A stretch of 64,000 bases of DNA from Eukaryota sp. GEM-RC1 (taxonomy: Eukaryota), in NCBI GenBank assembly GCA_040285855.1, contig JAUFOQ010000005.1, forward strand, positions 2,108,001 to 2,172,000, read 5' to 3'. Positions 50,589-63,022 of this stretch are shown here, in pieces (position 1 is the first letter of the stretch; the number at the start of each line of letters is the position of its first letter). The position numbers and the translations under genes are program-made. The notes under the pieces were generated by a model. It worked only from the letters and a program-made list of their open reading frames with translations. It was not told where the DNA came from and searched no databases.

Positions 50589-52324
50589 TATTAATGCATC
50601 ATATTGTACAATAAATTAGCCTTTTTTAAGGAAATGAGTGGAATTAGTTTGTGATAAAAGAATGTTGTATTGTGTTGTGATTTTGGAAGGAAACACGAAA
50701 TGTCAGAATTTTGTAATAGATCTGGCCTTTTTTTAGCATCAGTTTTTTAACGTTACAATATTGCTAGCATGAGCAAGGAAAAATCATGTTAAATCTTATG
50801 GGGGATGTTTCTATCAGCTCTGCTTCATGTCTGATTACTCAAATTTACGATAATTTTACTTATAATATCTCTTGGTCATTGAGCGTGTGTATTCACTCAA
50901 GAATACACACCATGTATACAGACGGTGAAACTAACAATTGAACAGAGCTGTACCTACAGTTCCTAATTTATTTACTTCGATCTTTTAAATATGTAATAAA
51001 ATAAAAGAAACTGTAACAATTTTCTCTAAATCTAGATCTGCGTCACTGTGCCTTCCAAACTAGGTCCATGTCTGTAGAAAACTCGTCTAATACTAGTATC
51101 TTGTTCATTCTGAATTAATCCAGAGCTTCTTCACCCGTATAGTACCAAGACTTCAACAGAACTGAAATGGTTCACGTGATTTACAAAAGAAGCGGACGTA
51201 TGTACTGAGGCAAACACACAACAAGAAATTGCAGGCTAATTGATTTGTAATCCAAAGATGTTGCTCACCTCAATCACAAAATTTATTCGAAATTAGTATT
51301 TGTTCCATTTGCTATTTCTATTTTTGGTGGTATTGACATGGCTTCTCAGTTTTTAACTGACTTTGGATCTATGTGTAAGTCTCAGAATAAGAGATTTAAC
51401 TTATCAATTTGGCATAACCCTTTGATTTTTTCTCTGTTCCGTTCAATTCCTAAGTTTATTTAATCAATTATCATAAAATTGTATAAGAACTGTAGTAGTA
51501 TTAACCAGGCATTTTCTATGTCTAGTGTTTGATAGCTGTTATTTTGATATGTATTTTTGCCCCTTCATCAATGAACAGTTTGTTATTAACACCCAGCGAT
51601 AGTACTGGATGTTGTTCACTGATACCAAATTTTAGTTGTTTAGTATAATTCACTTGGTATACATAAATATTGTAGATATTCATCAGAGTGATCTTTAGCA
51701 GGGTGAGTAGTAACGATGTGAGACATAATTAACCATAGTGACGAGAAAAGTGTTCTCTTTGTTGTATGATTCTAGTTCAGAAGTTGACCAGGAGCCTTTT
51801 CAGGACATTGTGGTGATTTGGCGATAATCGTTTTTGTAGGAGGCTGAAGATGCACTTTATTTCTGTTATTTCTGTTATTTCTGTTATTATTTGTGTTGGT
51901 TTCGTTCAAAGTTGCTTGTTTTAGAACATGTACAATTTGCGGCGGCAAAATTTAAATGTATATCGATTCAACTATTGAATCTTCCTGATTGCCAGGACAA
52001 CAGATACGACAACAACAGTATACGCCAAAATACAAAAATATTAATTTGAATATTTGTTTTTCAATTTTAAATTACAGTATTTTATGAATCGATATGTATT
52101 CTTTATGTATTTTTTTTCAAAACTATTTGTAATTTCCTTGAGTGATCCATGTGCTCCTTTCAGTTCTTGTAGATCCCCTGGGTGGATTCCTGTGTTTACC
52201 TCTCCCGCTGATTGTTCTTTTCGTGTCTCTTCAGTCTTTGACAGTTGCTTTGCAAAAAATGATTTGTAGCTTTAAGTTATGTGGACATTTGACGTTGAAG
52301 TCCCACATCCTGAAATACTATACC

Positions 52325-52640
52325 CATATTTTCTCGAGGCGTTCCTTTGTTTATACTCTTCTTTCCAACTTTTCATCAACCAAACACGATCACGTGTTTA
52401 AGGATATGCCAAGAGAACATATTTTCTCGAGGCGTTCCTTTGTTCTACCTTTGTTACATGGTTTGTTTACTCACTTTTCGTCACTCAAACACGATCACGT
52501 GTTTAAGGATGTGCCAAGAGAACATATTTTCTCGAGGCGTTCCTTTGTTTATACTCTTCTTTCCAACTTTTCGTCACTCAAACACGATCACGTGTTTAAG
52601 GATGTGCCAAGAGAACATATTTTCTCGAGGCGTTCCTTTT
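52325..52640. repeat. Tandem repeats (units of 93, 105 and 93 bp plus a partial fourth) with internal hairpins
   Basis: catattttctcgaggcgttcc starts at 52325, 52418, 52523 and 52616; each full unit carries aaacacg-atca-cgtgttt. Confidence 0.9.
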
Positions 52641-52789
52641 TCTCTCATGGATTCTCGAATTATTCTATGTTGTTTCTTCTTTTGTTGTTGTTAGGGAAAG
52701 TCTTGAGTTCGTCTCAGTCGTTGTTTTGTTTTTACGATCATAAAGTCAGCACTTGTATGGTTTTTCTACAATCAAGTCTCCAGTCATCA

Positions 52790-52843
52790 CAATTTCTCCG
52801 TGATTTGACTATGGACGGAGACATAGAGTCAAACCCTGGTCCT
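52790..52843 (+). other. 2A-like ribosomal skipping (StopGo) peptide
   Basis: QFLRDLTMDGDIESNPGP matches the D(V/I)ExNPGP consensus and has the typical L..L...GD upstream context. Confidence 0.85.
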
Positions 52844-55800
52844 TTTGTCACTGAGGAAGGAATCACTACATTGAAGCCCTCCGTATGGCTCGATGATTCA
52901 GTTGTTGACTTTTATGGTGAGTACATCACCGAGAGCAGCGAGTTATGCCAGTTTTTCCGTATCGGGAATCTTCATGCTGCAGTGAGTTATGGCGATTTTG
53001 ACACATTAGCTCTTGAATTTCGAAATGTTCAGAATTCAATGCGAGAGACTGGGGAAAGGTTGTTATTTATTCCAATAAACGATGGTGTCTTTCGTGGTAC
53101 AGCAACTCATTGGACTCTACTAGTTTGTGACATTGATAGTACGTCATTTTTTCACTTGAACCAATGTTCACTGACAGTTCAATTCAACTTTCATTTGACG
53201 TTTTAACTCAAAATGATCAAGTTGTAAGTACATTACAGGAATATTTGCGTCATTTTGGAAATTTTTCCAATTTAGGAAAGCTCCCAGTTATTAAACAGCA
53301 AACTCCCAACGACTGTGGACCATATATCTTAATGTATATGCAACGATTTGTTCATTTGGCATCAACATCAGACAATTTCCAGGAAATTATGTCTCAAGTC
53401 CAAGGTTATGTCGATTATGATGCTTTTAACATGAGAAAACAAGTTCTAAATCTATTAGGAACTACTCATCCTACGCCTTTTGCTATACTTGCTGTAAGTA
53501 TTGTCAATGAGTGCTTTTCAAACAGCACTCAAGCACATTCAACCCCTTCTCAACAACAAATGAATAGATCTGCTGGTACTTCTGAAATAGCCGAACATCC
53601 AACACTAATGTCATCTCCTGATGAAACTCGACAAGTGCCATTGACTACTCCCAATCAACTTATAGACTCAAATCGTACAAGAAAAACTCGTCAATCTAGA
53701 AAATATCCTCGAAAAAGAAATTTTCTCAAAAATATCACATTATACAACATCAACATCGTGGAATTCTAACACAATCTCGTCCTAGACCACTTTTACTAAG
53801 ATCTGATCAAATTGACTCACTAAAACCAAATGTACTGCTTCATGATTCTGTCATTGACTATGTTGGTCAGTACATTGCTGAAAAGAGTAATCTATGCGAG
53901 TTCTTTGAAGTGGCCAACATTCAAGATGCAATCAATCTTTCACAATATAACATAATGTTTGAACAATTTAGAGAGGTTCAATTATCAATGGAAAAATCAA
54001 GTAAAAGACACACTAAAAAGTGTAAGAAACGTTTCTTGTTTATTCCAATACATGACGGTCTCTTTGGTACAACAGCCACTCACTGGTCACTGTTAATCTG
54101 CGATATTGAAAACAAACAATACATTTCTATTGACTCAATGTGTACAGAAGATCAACGATCTCAGTTTTCTAACACTTTATCACGGATTGACACTGTCATT
54201 TCACAATTACAGCAATTCCTGTTTGATATGGCAAATTTCAGCTACATAGCTAGAGTACCAGTTCAACAAGTCCAAACTCTCGTTGACTGTGGTCTATTTA
54301 ATCTAATGTATATGAATAAAATTGTCGAGAGTGAATCAACATCAACAAATCTTTTCGAAATTCTGTCTAAAGTCTCTAATTGTGTTGTTTATAATGCATT
54401 AGAAACGAGAAAACAAATACTGTCTCAAATCGTTACTACTCACCCTGACGAAGATCACCCTGATGAATACCGACAATATGTATGTACTCATGCCCAAGGT
54501 ATTTTAAATGAGTTTTATTCTGATGAGATTGAATCACCTGTTAATCAACCTGTACAGTGTCAATCTGAAAGTTTAACTCCTGAAACAATGGTAGATGATA
54601 TTAGTTACAAGGAAACGGTGTCAAAGCTCACTTATCAAAACTTTCTCAAAAGTTTACCTGGAAATTTATCTAACCGGAAAAGAAACGTCTTTTGAAGTTA
54701 AAAATGATTGAACAAGCGCTGGAAGAAGCTGAAGAATTATTTCAAGAAAGTTATCATAACTTTAGTCGTCCAGAGTTGACAGATCTTCCAGAAATAAATT
54801 TACTAACTCCAAAGATAAATGTTGCTGCTTGTGAGAAACTTGATACAGCAGAAACAGCAGAAACAATTGAGTCATCTGAAACCACGGAAACAACAGAAGC
54901 AACAGAAACAATTGAGTCATCTGACACCACTGAACCAACAACAGCAACAGGTAATAGAAAAACAACAGTTGCCAAAAGGAAAACCACCAAACCAAAAGCA
55001 AGTGGAGTATCAAATGCGACAAAGAGTTTGAAACCTCCTAAAAAGCCAATGATTGAGTTTCTGAAACATTCCCAATTACCAAATAACTCTAATCATTGTT
55101 CAATATTGTCTTTTGATATTGAAACTAGAGAAATTGATCAAATCCCTGCAGAGACAGTTACACAGGAGTTGGACGATCAAAGAAAGAACGAGAATGAATC
55201 TCTCAAAATGAAAAGTGATGCAGAAAAAGAAGTTTGGATTCAAAACCAACAAGTTTTTATGATTTCTGGAGTGTTTGGTCATTTTATAAAAGATCAATTT
55301 TACCTTCAAGACAATTTTGTTGCAACTTTAGAGTTGACTCAAGAATCTGATGTTGAACTGCCACCTGATTGTAGAAACCTTCAATTTTTTGAAAACGAAA
55401 AACAGTTACTAGAGTTTTTTGTCAACTATTTGAATGATAAAAATCCCTCAGTTTTAACTGGATATAACATAACTGACTTCGATAATGTTGTTTTAGGCAA
55501 CAGGATTGTTACACTTGGAGTCGACTTTCCAGAACCAATGCTAGATGAAACAACTAAATCTCATTTATCATCTCTATGGCAAAATGTTTGTTCTGAATGG
55601 GCTGGTAGAATTGTCTGTGATTCATACGTTTATGCTAAGCAATTTATTGTTTCAAAATGTTCAAAGTCTTTAAGATCATTAAGTTGGTTTTTATTAAACG
55701 AATCTAAAGGACGTCTTCATGACGGATTGCACCACTTATTGCCTATTGATTGTGTTGATGAAAGACCTCAAGAAGTTGTAAACTATTGCTTCAAAGATAG

Positions 55801-57585
55801 TGTAATAGCATTGAAGTTGTTTTTATTGTTTCAATCAAATAAAATCGTTCACCCAACTTTTGTAACACATAAAACTACACTAAAGTCTATTGTCAAACAT
55901 TTTGGATTAACGCTATTACTCGATTATTATGCTCAATTGGTTCACAAACTTAGAATGCACACTTCCTATTGCTTGAAGCTGTTGTTATTACACATGGATA
56001 AGAATGGTGAAAAATTACCTTTAATTACAAGGAAAGAAGTAGAACATATTCAAACTCTGTTAAGATACATCTCTGCTGAGCATCATGAGATTGAATTATG
56101 TAATCAAGGACGACCTTCCACATATAATGAACACTTGAAAAACTTTGTTTTAGAAGAATACAAACAAGTAATGCTCAACAATGGAGGAATTCCACTCTTT
56201 CCAGCTGCTCATTCCTCTCGGCTTATGGCAATGGTTGGTGAAACTATTAAATCGAATTTGGACACCAATATTAAAATGCGATATGCTCAATACATTGACA
56301 AATTTATTAATGTTTATTTTCAAAAGACTGATCAAGAAGAAAAAATGTCAAAAAAAGAACAGTCTGTTTTTCGTTGGAGACTTAGACAAGTTAAAAATGT
56401 CTTTGTTGAAGGTAACAGAAATGACATTCCAAAGACCCCTGCAGAAATAAAACAATTTATTCAAAGATGTAATACAGAAATTCTTCAAGACGACAGTAAT
56501 TAGAAGTTTGAACATTGCAGGTAAAATTAAACTTCTATGGGCAGCTAACGACTATGTTGAAGGATTGTTTAGAGATAAATATTTTATTGATGTTCTCATC
56601 CCACCATCAATTGATATTCAAAATGCTAATGGTGTTTATAAAGAGAAAGTCGTTAAATCAAGTTCGTGAACATCCTCAATCCTTTATTAAATCTGCGATT
56701 CAAATAAATAACTATCTTGAAAGTGAAGGAGCAAGTGCTTACAATGTAATACCGATTGTTCGTCACGTCACACCAGGTTTCTTTGAAATAGACACACAAG
56801 GTCTTTTGGGGAATATTACGTTCCACTTTGTCAACACAACAAGTGAATGTCAAGAAGAAAATGTCTGAGTTGAATACAAAAGATGAAATTCTCCTGCTGA
56901 ACAAAATCAATTCTGGTCTTACTTTTTCAACTTTAATCGTCCATTTATAAAGAAAGGTTATAAGTTTAACAATACCATTAAACTGATGGTTTCTCTGCCT
57001 GTGTTGAACTGACCAGAGAGGACTGTGTGGGAATGTCCTTTAAACCAGTCAGTGCAAAGTTCTCCAGTAAAGAAGAATATGTTCAAGACTATGATGTTGA
57101 AGAGTTTTCATTGAAAACAAAAGTTTTTATTGATCCTGGAAAAACAGATTTACTTTATTTTTGTTCAGAGAGAAGTAAATAGGCCATTTGCTGAACAAAA
57201 AGCCCGTGAAATGAGAAACAGAGAATACGAGTGGTTAAGATTGACAGAGACAGAATGGTCCAGATGGTCAAGGGTCCATCAAAAGTTTAGAAGGGGAAAG
57301 AAAAAAGAATTCATTCTCCGAGATGGAAAGACAGTTGAAGAAGAAGAGTCAACATTGTCCATAGAAAATTCGAAATCGACTCTTTATGACACATTCTATG
57401 ACTATGTGAGTTCCAAGCTTACAGTTATTGAATCAACATTTGATTTCTGCTGTTTGATGATATGGCGCATTCAAAAATGCAAAGATACGTCCATATTCAA
57501 AAAACAGAAAGTAAGTTGTTGAAAAATATGACTGCAAAAGGATGGAATAAAAATGACTGTGTATTGATGTTTGGTCACAATGGTA

Positions 57586-58817
57586 AAACCACCTACGGCG
57601 ATATCACTGGCGTCTGCGCTAATCAGCACGCGTTGGTCCCTGTCTGGTAGACTGAGAGGCATGTGATTGATGATCTTATTTCTGATTGTCTCAAAATTAG
57701 ATTGATGAAGAGGTGTCCATTTTACTGAACGAGCGTTGTTCTTGACTAAGTTTATGATTGGAGCCAGAAGGTCTGATGCACCTGGAATAAAGTCTTTTAT
57801 GTAGTTAATCGAACCCACGAAGCTACGAACTTCTTTAATTGTGGTTGGTACGGGCAACTCTAGGAGAGCTGTGATACGCGATGGGTCAATACTGCGTGTA
57901 TTGTTAACGAACTTACTGCCCAAGATCTTTAGTGGGTGTTTCTTTGTCACAAAATGGCATTTGGGTAGGCCAAGGTTGACTCTACGTGTTAATGCTTTAG
58001 TCAGAACGAATCGGATTCGGCTCATAAATTCGTCGAATGTACGGCCTACTATGATGATGTCATCGATGTAGATGGATATGCTCTCATGGTTGAATATTTC
58101 ATACATCAAATTTTGAAATATCGCAGGGACGTTCTTGAGTCCAAAACAAGCTCTTTTAAATCGGATGGCTTTGCCAGGGATTACTAGAGTTGTCTTGTCT
58201 CTGTCCTTTTCTGCGAGGTTCAATTGCCAGAAGGCTTTCGGAAGATCCAAGGTCGCTATGAAATTAGCTTCACTCAGAAATTCCAAGATGTCGATGATCT
58301 TTGGAAGATTCGGTTCGACAACTAGGGTCAATGCGTTGATTCCATCGGAACCACTGAAGTCTCCCGTAAGGCGGGGCTTACGTTGATCGGGATAGACCAC
58401 CAGTACTACTGGTAAACTGAACTGTCCGTTGGGAGTTGTTAACTCAGCAAAGTCCTGCCGGACATGTTCATCGAAAATCTCTTCGGCAATCCGTTGTTTC
58501 ATTGGATTGAGCCGTCGAGGTTTCCGTCTCACAGTGGACTCTTCATTGTCGAAGTCGATCGCCATGGGAGGACAATCGATGCCGTCTTTGTGAGGAGCTG
58601 TTGAAAATATTGAGGAAAACTCCTGAAGCAGGCTCAATAAGCTCTTAGCTCTGTTTTCATCATCTAGTTTGATAGTGCTACCTGAATCGAATACATGTTT
58701 ATTAAAGTCTACAATGTTATCAATAGAATGGCTACTGGGAGGTTGTATGATACGTGAGTCGAACTCAGACTCATCGTTCACGGTGGCCAGGATGGCCTTG
58801 TCAATCCGGATGACTAG
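57586..58817 (-). CDS. pol: Reverse transcriptase + start of RNase H (truncated)
   Basis: LDLPKAFWQ, FGLKNVP, YIDDII, VRSFVG, ADAS; same frame as gag-pro across a TGA. Confidence 0.88.
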
Positions 58818-60386
58818 TCAGTCTTCGGTCAGTAGTCCTAACTGTTTCATCAGATCGATTCCCAATAATAGTTTGTTGGATCCTGGTATTATTGGTAACG
58901 TCTTATCCACATGTGTTAGGTACGCGATACTACTGGTATCGAAGGTCAAGATGCCCTGGGCGCTACCCAAGGACCGGGACTCAACATTGTTTGCGGATGT
59001 GAAGCGAACATTTTTGTTGACGGGCGTCATGTTACACTTCGTAGCCAGGTCTTGTGTAATGACGGACATGGTTGCTCCACTGTCCCAAAAACCTTGAACC
59101 GGAATTCCGTTAATCATCAGTTTGCAGCTGAGAAGAGGGAGTGGGTTCTGACTACTTATGCTGAATATGGAATTCAGGATTTGTGAGTTCGTATTACCAT
59201 TGGCAGAACTGATGTTGCTCAATGGGTTTAAGAATTGATTGGTTTCAATCAAACTGGGATTTGATTGACTAGATGTGATGTTATCAAATATATCTGCAAG
59301 GCTGTTGATATGTGCTGAATTTGCATTGAAATATTTAGATTTTTTATGGGACGAGTGTTTCTTGCTATGACTACGAGATGGTTTTGAGGTGGAACTCTTG
59401 GCATTACGTTGTTCTAAAGGAAGCTCACTACGTTTACATTCGGGATCCGGACATTGGAGGATGGAATGGCCCTTTTCGCCACAAAATCTACAGGCGTCGG
59501 GGTCTTTATCTTCAGATCGAGGCTTCTTCGAGGGTGGCTTGGAGCTGGATGCCGATCTACGAGATTTACCGGGTTCACTAGACTGAACCGGGATGAGAGG
59601 ACGGGAAGTCCAGGATTTGGGGAGGTCTTCCCAGGTAGCTGTATCTCTAAGATGAGCTATTTCGGCAATTCGTTGTTCGTTCTGCACGTTGGCTGGAGCA
59701 GATTTCCATCTCTCGCACCAAGTGTCATAACGTTCTTTCACTTCGAAGATTAATCCTTGGATATCCGGAGAATCTTGGTAGAGAGGCCAACATTCAATCC
59801 AGATGGATACGATGCTTAAGTTTGACAGAATAGCTTTAACAGTGGCTTTGTCTGGTAACGCAGTCATAGGCTTATTCTTCAGCTTTATGGCCTGGGTTCT
59901 TTGTAGAACGCGGTGCAACCGTGATATGAAATCACTCCATCGCTTTTCAGGGTCTGTGATGGACCACTTCATCTTGATCTTGTTCAGCTCATTCAAGGCA
60001 GTGGTCTCGTCTGGGAACTGAGTACGCTTGAGGAGAGCTAACCATAAGGTGAGAGGGTTCTTACCATCCCACTCCTTTTGCATAGACAGCTGGGTCTGTA
60101 AGTCGAACTTCACAAAGCGTTGGATGTAAGAAGGATCAGCCTGTGCTGCAGCCGTTCGACAGAAGTCGAAAAAATGTCTTGGCCATCCGAATGGAGCCCC
60201 TACCAATGTTTTGTGGTTAGGGTCCATCACGCTCCATTGAAGAAAGTCTTGAGCAAATTCAATGATGTCGTGTGGTTTCAAACTCGAAAGCATCTTGGGT
60301 TGAAGCTTAGAGTTCTTCATAGAGTCGAGGGGGACTTTCTGTTGGAAAGTGACAACACTATGGGACATTGGGGAACGTTGTTCCAC
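58818..60386 (-). CDS. gag: Gag (CCHC knuckle) + aspartic protease
   Basis: CRFCGEKGHSILQC; FWDSGAT..I; LLLGID. Confidence 0.85.
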   Translation of the reverse strand: MEQRSPMSHSVVTFQQKVPLDSMKNSKLQPKMLSSLKPHDIIEFAQDFLQWSVMDPNHKTLVGAPFGWPRHFFDFCRTAAAQADPSYIQRFVKFDLQTQLSMQKEWDGKNPLTLWLALLKRTQFPDETTALNELNKIKMKWSITDPEKRWSDFISRLHRVLQRTQAIKLKNKPMTALPDKATVKAILSNLSIVSIWIECWPLYQDSPDIQGLIFEVKERYDTWCERWKSAPANVQNEQRIAEIAHLRDTATWEDLPKSWTSRPLIPVQSSEPGKSRRSASSSKPPSKKPRSEDKDPDACRFCGEKGHSILQCPDPECKRSELPLEQRNAKSSTSKPSRSHSKKHSSHKKSKYFNANSAHINSLADIFDNITSSQSNPSLIETNQFLNPLSNISSANGNTNSQILNSIFSISSQNPLPLLSCKLMINGIPVQGFWDSGATMSVITQDLATKCNMTPVNKNVRFTSANNVESRSLGSAQGILTFDTSSIAYLTHVDKTLPIIPGSNKLLLGIDLMKQLGLLTED

Positions 60387-61783
60387 AACCGAATTGGAAG
60401 CTGTCGGAGCCAGGGGGGAAGGAGGTCAGTTGAAGGGGAGGTTGATGTCGTGCTAAGATCACTCAAGGAGAGACCAAGCTGGTGGACATCAGGTGGTAGA
60501 TTTGATTGATCGGAAGGTGATTGATAAAATTCGGAAATTTCTTTCACTTTAGACTTCGGATTTGCATTTGCTCTACGAGCGAGTTCTTCTTCATATTCCA
60601 CTCGAGCTCGGTATTTCAATGCTGTGGGTTGGATAACCACTTCATCAGTCGGGATTATGGTGCTCTGGATAGCTTCGGGGAGCGGAGAGGAGTTGTGATC
60701 TGATGGGCGAATTCTTTTGTCCAAATTCGACTTTTCAAAAGTTCGACCTGTCAATACTTCCTGGACCTTTTCCCAGCATTTTTCACGGGAATCATGGTTT
60801 CCGGTATACTAGGGTCCATCAGGATAGTATGGGGTTTTCCTCGGTCGTCAAGGATGGTGTAAGTTCCTTCAAGGGGGAGAACTTCGTCGTTAAATTGTCT
60901 CCTGATCAGTCTTATGGCTGCCTGAGCTGGTCTAGGATAGCGGTTTCTTAGGTAGTCCGTTCTATCTTTGGCTCCATGAAGAAAATCATGTACCATTTGG
61001 CGATCTGATGGGAACATACGATGTTCTACTCGTTTTAGTTCCTCTTCTGTTAACCCTTGTTGAAAAGTTCCAGGAGGGGCCTGGAATAACTCTGAGGAAC
61101 CCGTCTAAGTGGACCTGACAGGATAAAACCCTTGGTTTGAGGAGTAGGGACGGAACCTGCAACCTCGGAAGTTGCTGGAAGGGCGGAACCTTCAACAAAG
61201 AGGGACTTTGAAGGGCGGAACCTTCTAAAGGGATGTAGTCGTTCCTTGGAGGGCGGGACCATCCGAGAAGAAACGACTCATTGTGGGGTCCTGGGACCTT
61301 GGTGATTGCGGGGGCACTCTGTCACAAGGCGCAGCACCACATGGGACACAATAATCATTGTTGTCTGTAGACATGGGAGAAGGTAAAGTAAATTTATTTT
61401 AAGGGTACTGTACCAGTACTAACAGGCAGAACCTAAAACATCTCCGATCAAGTAGAGGTGTTGGTTGGAGAAACTTCTTTAAGAGAAATGGTTATAACAT
61501 AGTTTTGGTAGACGAGAGTTACACGTCTTCAAAGTGTCCTACTTGTTGGAAGCCAGTTAAAGTGTTCAAAGAAATCAGTAATCCAAAACCATGGAAAAGA
61601 GAGAAGAAACCTCTGGTAAAGTGTCACGCTTTGTTGAGATGCAAGTCCCAAGAATGTAGAGAAGAATGTCATGGTAGCGGCAAGATTTGGAATCGTAACC
61701 AGTTAGCATGTATCAACATCAAGACCATTGTGGAGCATCATTTGGAGCGGGGTCTAGGAGTTAGAGCCAGTTATTTGTCATAG

Positions 61784-61899
61784 TCATAGTCATAGCATTT
61801 ATTTACTACAGTGAATCTGTAGCATTATTGAATCTTAGAATTTGTCAGACATCTTCTCAGATTCATTTGAATTTCAAGAAAATGGCCAAAAGTACATTG
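61784..61899 (+). ncRNA. Candidate Fanzor omegaRNA scaffold / right element end
   Basis: Directly after the Fanzor stop; hairpins ctacag-tgaat-ctgtag (61806-61822) and tgaatcttagaa...ttctcagattca (61829-61865); called by position and analogy only. Confidence 0.45.
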
Positions 61900-62989
61900 T
61901 GTTGCCGTAAGGTCAACGTTGATACAAATGGAAAGAAGAAGTGTTTATTGTTGCTAGAGATCCTTAAGAATAGATGCCACGTCATCAGAGGTGAAGATAT
62001 CTACTAGGTATCGTTATCTTCACTAACACTACATTTTCCCATTTCTTTTGAAGCTGTGCAGAGAACTTATTTGAACTCATAAAGGGGGTTCAACAAACGC
62101 TTGGGACCTGGATACGAGTCATTTGCATGAGACAGGAAGTGAATTTCGTGTTTTACCTTAGAAGGACAATCCCGAGCTAAATGGCCATTCTGATGACACT
62201 TAAAACAAGTACCATTAGCCAGATTGCGAGATCTATCCGAGGAACGAGACTTTGTGCCAACTTGACGGGAGGGATCGCAGTTTTCGGCAGGAATCCTTGT
62301 AGACTTATTCCATGAGGCTACTCTGGAACAATCAAGCAACTCATCCGTTGCAGTATCTACTAAGGTAGAGAAGTCAGGGAAGACCTCATCGCGGATCCGA
62401 GCTATCAACGATTTTTGCAAGCCCATGGGAAGGATCCCCTTGGCAAATCGTGTCATAAAAGCTGAGTCAGGCAACTTCAGTCCGGAAGCCCGGCTTTTCG
62501 CCTGAAGGAAACGCCTCAGGTAGCCTGACATTCGTTCACGGACATCGCCTTCTCGGACATCAACTCTAATCTCAGATATCGCAGAGTGGAATTCCTCGTA
62601 CGTCGAGAACGAGGTGGTGGATCTCAGGTGATCCAAGAAAACCTCTTCAGAGGCATCAACCCCAGGCTTAGTAAGAATCAAAGACTCTAGTAAGAAGGGG
62701 TCGACGAGGAGCCTTGGCGGAACAAGGTCCTTTTTCGGGGTGACGGAAGAGTACACTTTCCACTGTTGTAGGAACAGGAGTACGTCTTCTACTTTCATGG
62801 AAGAAAGTGAGGGGAGAACTACGCGGGTAGAAAACATCTGCAGTGAGGGCCAATAATTATTGTTGCCGTAAGGTCAACGTTGATACAAATGGAAAGAAGA
62901 AGTGTTTATTGTTGCTAGAGATCCTTAAGAATAGATGCCACGTCATCAGAGGTGAAGATATCTACTAGGTATCGTTATCTTCACTAACA
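61900..62989 (-). mobile_element. Gag-only miniature LTR retroelement (1090 bp)
   Basis: Identical-looking 129-bp LTRs at 61900-62028 and 62861-62989 (TG..CA); 4-bp TSD attg; polypurine tract aaaagaaatgggaaaa on the minus strand before the 3' LTR. Confidence 0.93.
62067..62837 (-). CDS. gag: Gag with CCHC zinc knuckle
   Basis: CFKCHQNGHLARDC; intact ORF with no pol. Confidence 0.85.
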   Translation of the reverse strand: MFSTRVVLPSLSSMKVEDVLLFLQQWKVYSSVTPKKDLVPPRLLVDPFLLESLILTKPGVDASEEVFLDHLRSTTSFSTYEEFHSAISEIRVDVREGDVRERMSGYLRRFLQAKSRASGLKLPDSAFMTRFAKGILPMGLQKSLIARIRDEVFPDFSTLVDTATDELLDCSRVASWNKSTRIPAENCDPSRQVGTKSRSSDRSRNLANGTCFKCHQNGHLARDCPSKVKHEIHFLSHANDSYPGPKRLLNPLYEFK

Positions 62990-63022
62990 ATTGATTTCAA
63001 AAGAAACCTGTTTTTGACGATA

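Follow-up and report, generated by a model that had tools for sequence, protein, structure and literature searches.

Organization of the locus

The window, a 64-kb stretch of the assembly labelled Eukaryota sp. GEM-RC1, comes from a single-celled eukaryotic host with at least one short intron and carries a canonical 2A (StopGo) sequence ahead of what we read, from the sequence, as a protease-exonuclease-Fanzor1 element (Table 1). The frame that begins at ATG 52667 with MLFLLLLLLGKVLSSSQS reaches FLRDLTMDGDIESNPG/P with the proline as codon 59 (52841 to 52843), as the initial annotation of this DNA had described. The core octapeptide DIESNPGP (52820 to 52843) is in frame with a Ulp1 domain downstream, whose N-terminal WLDD motif begins at 52886, 15 codons past the 2A proline, which bears out the further claim that a protease adjoins the proline. 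The predicted skip point lies between Gly 52838 to 52840 and Pro 52841 to 52843. Upstream of the core, the hexapeptide DLTMDG followed by DIES fits the DLTxDG type, in which core positions p12 and p15 are D and S. The pattern D(V/I)ExNPGP occurs once in six frames of the 64 kb, where it is also the sole NPGP, against an expectation by composition of 3e-5. The window motif is a real 2A sequence.

Table 1. Features of the element and its 5' region in the window
Feature	Position	Strand	Details
Open frame upstream	52142..52666	+	In frame with the 2A; in-frame ATGs 52259, 52406
Second open frame (+1) across the repeats	52314..52694	+	ATGs 52458, 52509, 52602, 52647
Three tandem repeats	52325..52639	+	Spacing 105 and 93 nt
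Leader as first annotated	52667..52780	+	Hydrophobic run 52667-52693, then Ser/Gln/Cys-rich
2A/StopGo block	52781..52843	+	QSSQFLRDLTMDGDIESNPG/P, conserved
Ulp1/C48 protease 1	52844..53450	+	His 53108, Cys 53314; right end approximate
Ulp1/C48 protease 2	53790..54440	+	His 54081, Cys 54288; ends approximate
Protease/exonuclease junction	54668..54710	+	Frame change at A4 54678
PolB-type 3'-5' exonuclease domain	55109..55798	+	Pfam E 5.8e-15
Fanzor1, N-terminal part	55850..57598	+	Through RuvC-I Asp 57132; ends approximate
Ty3/gypsy-type insert	57599..61407	-	Truncated (gag-protease, RT); splits Fanzor; boundaries approximate
Fanzor1, C-terminal part	61418..61783	+	RuvC-II Glu 61514, zinc finger, Asn 61697 at the RuvC-III position, stop 61781-61783
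Small LTR-like element	61900..62997		137-nt direct repeats TG...CA; zf-CCHC ORF on minus strand

The motifs of the exonuclease are intact and read FDIET, GYNITDFD, and YCFKD, which we take to be ExoI, ExoII, and ExoIII, respectively. The N-terminal part of the Fanzor1 protein contains several frameshifts and two small deletions. Neither LTRs nor an integrase match were found in the Ty3/gypsy-type insert, and ACCTA is present at both of its junctions. The small LTR-like element has ATTG on both flanks and the zinc-knuckle ORF as its only ORF. It sits 116 nt past the Fanzor stop, where an omega-RNA would be expected, and interrupts a candidate omega-RNA region of which 61760 to 61899 folds with z = -0.88.

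The assignment to Fanzor1 draws on a match of the window ORF to SpuFz1 (E 0.0026), on alignment of the C-terminal part with 10 Fanzors, and on the relative P0030, which matches SpuFz1 and PpFz1 with E values of 1.8e-22 and 9.8e-22. Within the Fanzor1 motif D-x(125,275)-[TS][TS]-xx-zinc finger-x(5,50)-RD, the D, E, TSS, and zinc finger are present in the window, while RN replaces RD in the window and in 7/7 relatives of the group; the 7 outside Fanzors aligned have Asp at this position. The RuvC-I Asp, RuvC-II Glu, and zinc finger are shared with SpuFz1, PpFz1, and GtFz1 (passages of PMC10432273, PMC11423790, and PMC3627910). We had considered the RuvC-III Asn as the mark of a dead nuclease and dropped this idea, because GtFz1 carries the same D-E-N RuvC triad and cuts DNA (passages of PMC11423790).

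Fusion of the exonuclease to Fanzor1 (window 54674 to 61783; P0023, P0087, and P0095) occurs under three species labels and is not described in the passages of the Fanzor literature that were covered. The gene model P0086 joins a DEAH-type helicase to the exonuclease-Fanzor; either a capture or an artefact of the model may explain this. The element family is multi-copy. No inverted repeat of at least 8 nt was found between the element ends tested, nor a transposase match in the flanking ORFs, so that the label "DNA transposon" rests on copy number and the known biology of Fanzor1 (passages of PMC3627910); the family are likely jumping genes. Downstream of the 2A, an APE endonuclease or reverse transcriptase is absent from the plus strand and from the relatives, and the sole reverse transcriptase is that of the minus-strand Ty3/gypsy insert.

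Conservation of the 2A in related elements

The initial annotation had named loss of the motif or of its frame in other copies as the sign against it; the 2A is instead kept, and in frame, in sibling copies and under two other species labels. It lies directly before protease 1 in 17/17 models of the same species label that extend over the start of this protease (16 with the canonical motif and one with NLGP), and these models span three protease subfamilies. These are gene models only, not DNA, and one of the 17 is probably the window locus's own. The same-label models were found partly with 2A-bearing queries. In a search free of this bias, with an exonuclease-Fanzor ORF lacking the 2A as query, the 63 matches, together with the clusters of some of them, returned 2A-bearing proteins under the two other labels.

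P0095 comprises the 2A, Ulp1, exonuclease, and complete Fanzor, with one model running from the 2A into RuvC, and P0031 comprises the 2A, Ulp1, exonuclease, and N-terminal part of Fanzor. P0092 joins the 2A to the exonuclease and Fanzor as far as RuvC-I in one model without a protease. P0091 and P0029 are 2A-exonuclease models without a protease, and P0080 and P0038 are also 2A-bearing, P0080 without a protease. Across these other-label relatives, the exonuclease-Fanzor part is 23-45% identical to that of the window. The protease of P0095 fell into C48 clusters of the ESM Atlas. The homologs are labelled Eukaryota sp. GEM-RC1, TZLM3-RCL, and TZLM1-RC. The latter two labels occur in published work on a genus of free-living metamonads (PMC11603281), from which we infer the lineage. 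Scans of viral contigs and metagenome contigs gave no confirmed relative.

When nine representatives (not fully independent, as three share one protease) are anchored at the Gly-Pro, the 17-position 2A block is identical in 421/612 comparisons (69%), or in 277/468 (59%) without the four anchor positions. Its flanks in the same nine are identical in 80/684, 73/656, and 89/684 (11-13%), with 33% identity over the five positions directly upstream of the block. In length, the conserved unit corresponds to a 2A. The motif, with its frame and position, is selectively conserved between unrelated leaders on one side and different downstream modules (Ulp1 or exonuclease) on the other.

A tree built from 12 element exonucleases with 5 PolB outgroups places all the elements in a single clade (100/100) whose base is without resolution; 5/6 of the basal branches contain rows with the 2A or NPGP. 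Six models of the group (P0023, P0026, P0085, P0086, P0087, and P0088) show no NPGP, some after long N-terminal stretches, so the 2A may not be universal in the group. Variation within the motif includes a core E replaced by H in P0031 and P0092, and a residue at the head of the motif that is Phe in all same-label copies covering it and Trp in P0095, P0031, P0092, and P0080.

Leaders and proteases occur in mixed combinations around a near-constant 2A in P0004, P0104, P0119, and the window, where one leader is found with two proteases and one protease with three leaders. These combinations suggest recombination at or near the 2A.

Predicted activity of the 2A

The closest known counterparts are the viral class A DLTxDG 2As (motif 4 in passages of PMC12846837; EoPV-2A2 of Ectropis obliqua virus in passages of PMC12338488), which share the core DIESNPGP, the upstream RDLTxDG, and an aromatic residue in the same register, with Trp there and Phe here at position 17. 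The viral peptides lie between capsid and replication proteins, whereas the predicted 2A of the window is near the N-terminus of the ORF of a DNA element. Of its last 15 residues, 14 match EoPV-2A2, for which an activity of 0.99 is listed and which is also without the Trp (PMC12338488, supplement 2, in part). Among the entries of supplement 3 examined, peptides similar to the window 2A are mostly iflaviral and picornaviral. A representative of motif 4, as the DLTxDG hexapeptide is termed, gave almost 100% StopGo in lysate (passages of PMC12846837).

The window sequence has Phe where the full motif 4, WV(R/K)DLTx(acidic)G, has Trp, and in class B peptides a W-to-F change lowered activity about 2.3-fold (passages of PMC12338488). 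A motif match is not equivalent to activity, since 81% of cells in a canonical viral 2A library fell in the inactive gate (passages of 10.64898/2026.09.24.754024) and 3/17 class A peptides were without activity (passages of PMC12338488). According to passages of both sources, weak activity in human cells is found for many canonical 2As. On balance we judge it likely that the 2A actively skips in its host. A Giardiavirus 2A, considered as proof of skipping on metamonad ribosomes, was dropped, since no such statement appears in the passages of PMC8230311.

Role of the 2A and nature of the leader

The reading that we favor, with confidence somewhat above even, is that StopGo would free a proline-start polyprotein from a disposable leader. 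The ribosome would skip the Gly-Pro bond at the 2A ending at 52843, the variable, repeat-derived leader would be released by the skip, and a Ulp1-Ulp1-exonuclease-Fanzor1 polyprotein beginning with proline would then be made free of it, in what would be one continuous frame in the intact element and across the family. A benefit may be that the 5' DNA, with its repeats and several possible starts, could change while the nuclear protein stays unaltered and correctly targeted, the N-terminus of which would be independent of the upstream start or repeat number used. Some drop in downstream yield may accompany skipping.

The region upstream of the 2A is compatible with several starts. Because the frame remains open for 175 codons further 5' and contains in-frame ATGs (Table 1), 52667 is only one candidate start. 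Each of the tandem repeats there contains a 20-nt motif with a CACGTG palindrome that occurs nowhere else in the window, and the repeats are likely cis-elements of the 5' end of the element. Two frames are open across them, each expected at about 2% by shuffling (207/10000), and open frames over the repeats were for this reason dropped as a sign of translation; a shuffle figure of 21/5000 for the openness of the repeats was set aside, as its left bound had been chosen post hoc. The second of these frames terminates 25 nt past ATG 52667, and its last ATG lies 20 nt before 52667, out of frame; it is a possible overlapping uORF. The T-rich run was also considered as an intron end: a rough pattern from one host intron gave 0 matches in 52001-53200, which is weak evidence, and 22 matches in 1-52000.

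An alternative that we regard as unlikely is dual targeting by a signal peptide combined with the 2A, in which the skipped product would go to the cytosol and nucleus and the unskipped product would enter the ER and be removed. The initial annotation had called the leader signal-peptide-like and secretory. At the level of residues this description stands: hydropathy over the best 9 residues is 3.48, and the cathepsin C of the window has a signal-like start that the leader resembles. Read in its other two frames, however, this DNA reaches 3.19 and 3.24, and 97/5000 dinucleotide shuffles reach the observed 3.48, in leader DNA that is 47% T. A secretory role is weakly supported, as the start codon is uncertain, an out-of-frame ATG precedes it, and a signal-like start is not kept across related elements.

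The leaders of the family bear on this alternative from both sides. Three of eight leader types, unrelated to one another, show a clear hydrophobic run after a Met, 32-62 residues ahead of the skip site, whereas one is borderline and four are without such a start. Eight distinct leaders nonetheless exceed 477 stop-free off-frame segments in hydropathy (median 2.29 vs 1.68, p = 0.01; P0104 was left out because it has the same leader as P0004). Such an excess over chance is not predicted by a purely disposable leader and so counts against the reading that we favor. In P0095 and P0031 the hydrophobic run adjoins the 2A directly and may be an upstream helix of the 2A rather than a signal. The window leader is shared with four almost identical copies, which differ from it at 1-3 of 37 residues, and against 8 other family representatives it gave no alignment above shuffles (208-988/1000 shuffles as good); the ESM Atlas returned only a 0.75 match for it. 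Many of the family leaders contain in-frame tandem repeats of 18-51 residues.

A precedent for dual targeting is provided by the 2A-like signals of sea-urchin NLRs (passages of PMC4981915), in which a 2A core comes after a hydrophobic stretch at the N-terminus. The window leader would share this if it starts at 52667, and P0095 nearly reproduces the layout. In the NLRs the signal and 2A form one 26-residue unit for which targeting has been demonstrated, whereas in the window the hydrophobic run of the putative signal precedes the 2A block by about 30 residues and is not conserved across families.

Slightly less likely still, in our estimation, is a composite scheme in which a lineage of Fanzor1 DNA elements would resemble an RNA-virus polyprotein in its construction. 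An ancestral, active 2A would be the fixed point at which leaders are exchanged, as are accessory modules (an exonuclease and zero, one, or two SUMO proteases). Signal-like leaders that arose independently would route unskipped nuclease to the ER, and the rate of skipping would set the dose of an RNA-guided nuclease.

Dose control alone we consider improbable. Here the 2A would mainly act, by stalling or drop-off, to reduce how much of a genotoxic nuclease is made, perhaps in concert with the overlapping +1 uORF. Such a role has been proposed for non-LTR 2As (passages of PMC3708506), 59-70% of tested retrotransposon 2A-like peptides cut protein abundance (passages of PMC13405545), and in the window the +1 frame with its four ATGs overlaps the start. 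The window 2A, however, is of the DLTxDG type, which is near-fully efficient in viruses, and not of the Leu-rich type named in the title of that preprint (PMC13405545, in part).

Frame breaks and the continuity of the element

The initial annotation placed the 2A at the front of a Fanzor ORF, which holds for the inferred intact element and not for the DNA as assembled, where a stop at 53206 closes the 2A frame within the first protease and Fanzor lies several frame changes further on. The first three breaks are at homopolymers: T6 at 53147 in protease 1, A5 at 53712 before protease 2, and the A4 of the protease/exonuclease junction. Models of the same label read through the first break in 6/9 cases and through the second in 8/9, with the window's own among those broken. 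The junction break, in contrast, is common to all 8 same-label models that reach it, one of them the window's own, and none reads through.

This last observation argues for a real boundary, and it supports a two-frame element, in which the 2A would head only a leader-Ulp1-Ulp1 protein and the exonuclease-Fanzor would be made by re-initiation at ATG 54704, 8 nt past the stop, or by a programmed -1 shift. The model P0112, an intact leader-2A-Ulp1-Ulp1 protein of 764 aa, is also in line with such an arrangement. Against it, P0023, P0085, and P0086, which are from another species label, have homologous residues on both sides of the junction in a single frame (the left side of this homology is weak when taken alone, with 24-36/2000 shuffles as good), P0092 joins the 2A to Fanzor without a protease, and a canonical slippery heptamer was not seen by eye at the junction. 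Furthermore, a break in the middle of Fanzor, at an A5 at 57473, is present in 6/6 same-label models yet is read through in 7/7 relatives, which points to a systematic error of the assembly. We regard the two-frame element as improbable, slightly more so than dose control.

Two host genes of the window, one for an NAD(P) transhydrogenase and one for an unnamed coiled-coil-like protein, change frame at homopolymers as well (19388 and about 50178). In the transhydrogenase the change falls at a C6 run and separates consecutive parts of the Pfam match, positions 41-108 and 119-209. Because of these two genes, the gene models of this assembly are likely often split. We read most of the frame breaks as probable assembly errors; the frame changes at 57473 and 54678 are likely systematic errors, and programmed frameshifting is also possible. 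Continuity from the 2A to Fanzor would then follow from the relatives that read through and from the homopolymer type of the breaks. Judging by locus tags, 2A-protease models lie no more than five genes away from Fanzor models at two other places (P0119/P0009 and P0002/P0015).

It is very improbable that the 2A-protease cassette is a functionless relic captured from a non-LTR retrotransposon or RNA virus: a 2A and deubiquitinase domains do front some non-LTR ORF2 proteins (passages of PMC13405545), and the window copy is broken and nested with other elements, but the block stands out from its flanks across branches as divergent as those described above, and the 2A is kept where the protease is absent (P0092 and P0080).

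Comparison with other mobile elements

In the passages of the literature consulted, 2A/StopGo sequences are reported from RNA viruses, from retroelements, and from a small number of cellular genes. The 2As of APE-type non-LTR elements (L1Tc, Ingi, CR1, L2, and Crack; passages of PMC3708506) share with the window a position about 40-80 residues from the N-terminus, ahead of enzymatic domains, and some non-LTR ORF2 proteins have Josephin or OTU domains (passages of PMC13405545), which is a likeness in that a ubiquitin-like protease is sometimes present. Those elements encode RT and APE, whereas the window has Ulp1, a PolB-type exonuclease, and Fanzor1 instead and so is not a member of them. Ubiquitin-like proteases are likewise found on the DNA elements Ginger1, Mutator, and Helitron, where the Ulp1 or OTU domain is fused to or beside the transposase; the passages of PMC2836005 mention no 2A or Fanzor there.

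Unlike SpuFz1, PpFz1, and GtFz1, the Fanzor1 of this family lies behind an exonuclease, up to two Ulp1 proteases, and a 2A leader, and no such fusion appears in the passages covered of the Fanzor and 2A literature, which included PMC10432273, PMC10530073, PMC8623073, and PMC8230311. Searches of the literature (mostly non-subscription) for a 2A with Fanzor, TnpB, or DNA transposons gave no report among the matches listed, and a term search of the supplements of two 2A surveys, in the parts available, found neither Fanzor nor TnpB. For the architecture of Ulp1, an intact PolB-type exonuclease, and a D-E-N RuvC, no description was found in a Fanzor. The window motif is a recoding signal of a known kind, in a setting that is conserved and newly seen, and a conserved 2A at the front of the polyprotein of an RNA-guided nuclease extends translational recoding to the Fanzor class. 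As LINEs and the Fanzor element share the N-terminal position of the 2A with unrelated leaders, the role of an N-terminal 2A becomes testable in a third setting, for which natural variants are available (F versus W at the head, E versus H in the core, and elements with or without the protease).

Other features of the window

Upstream of the element, a 71-nt inverted fragment of the tail of protease 2 (51660-51730, 86%) is a remnant of another copy. Leucine-rich repeats of 84 nt are present in at least six genes between 3328 and 48511, a region that also has two B-box genes and local duplications of up to 2.4 kb at 94% identity.
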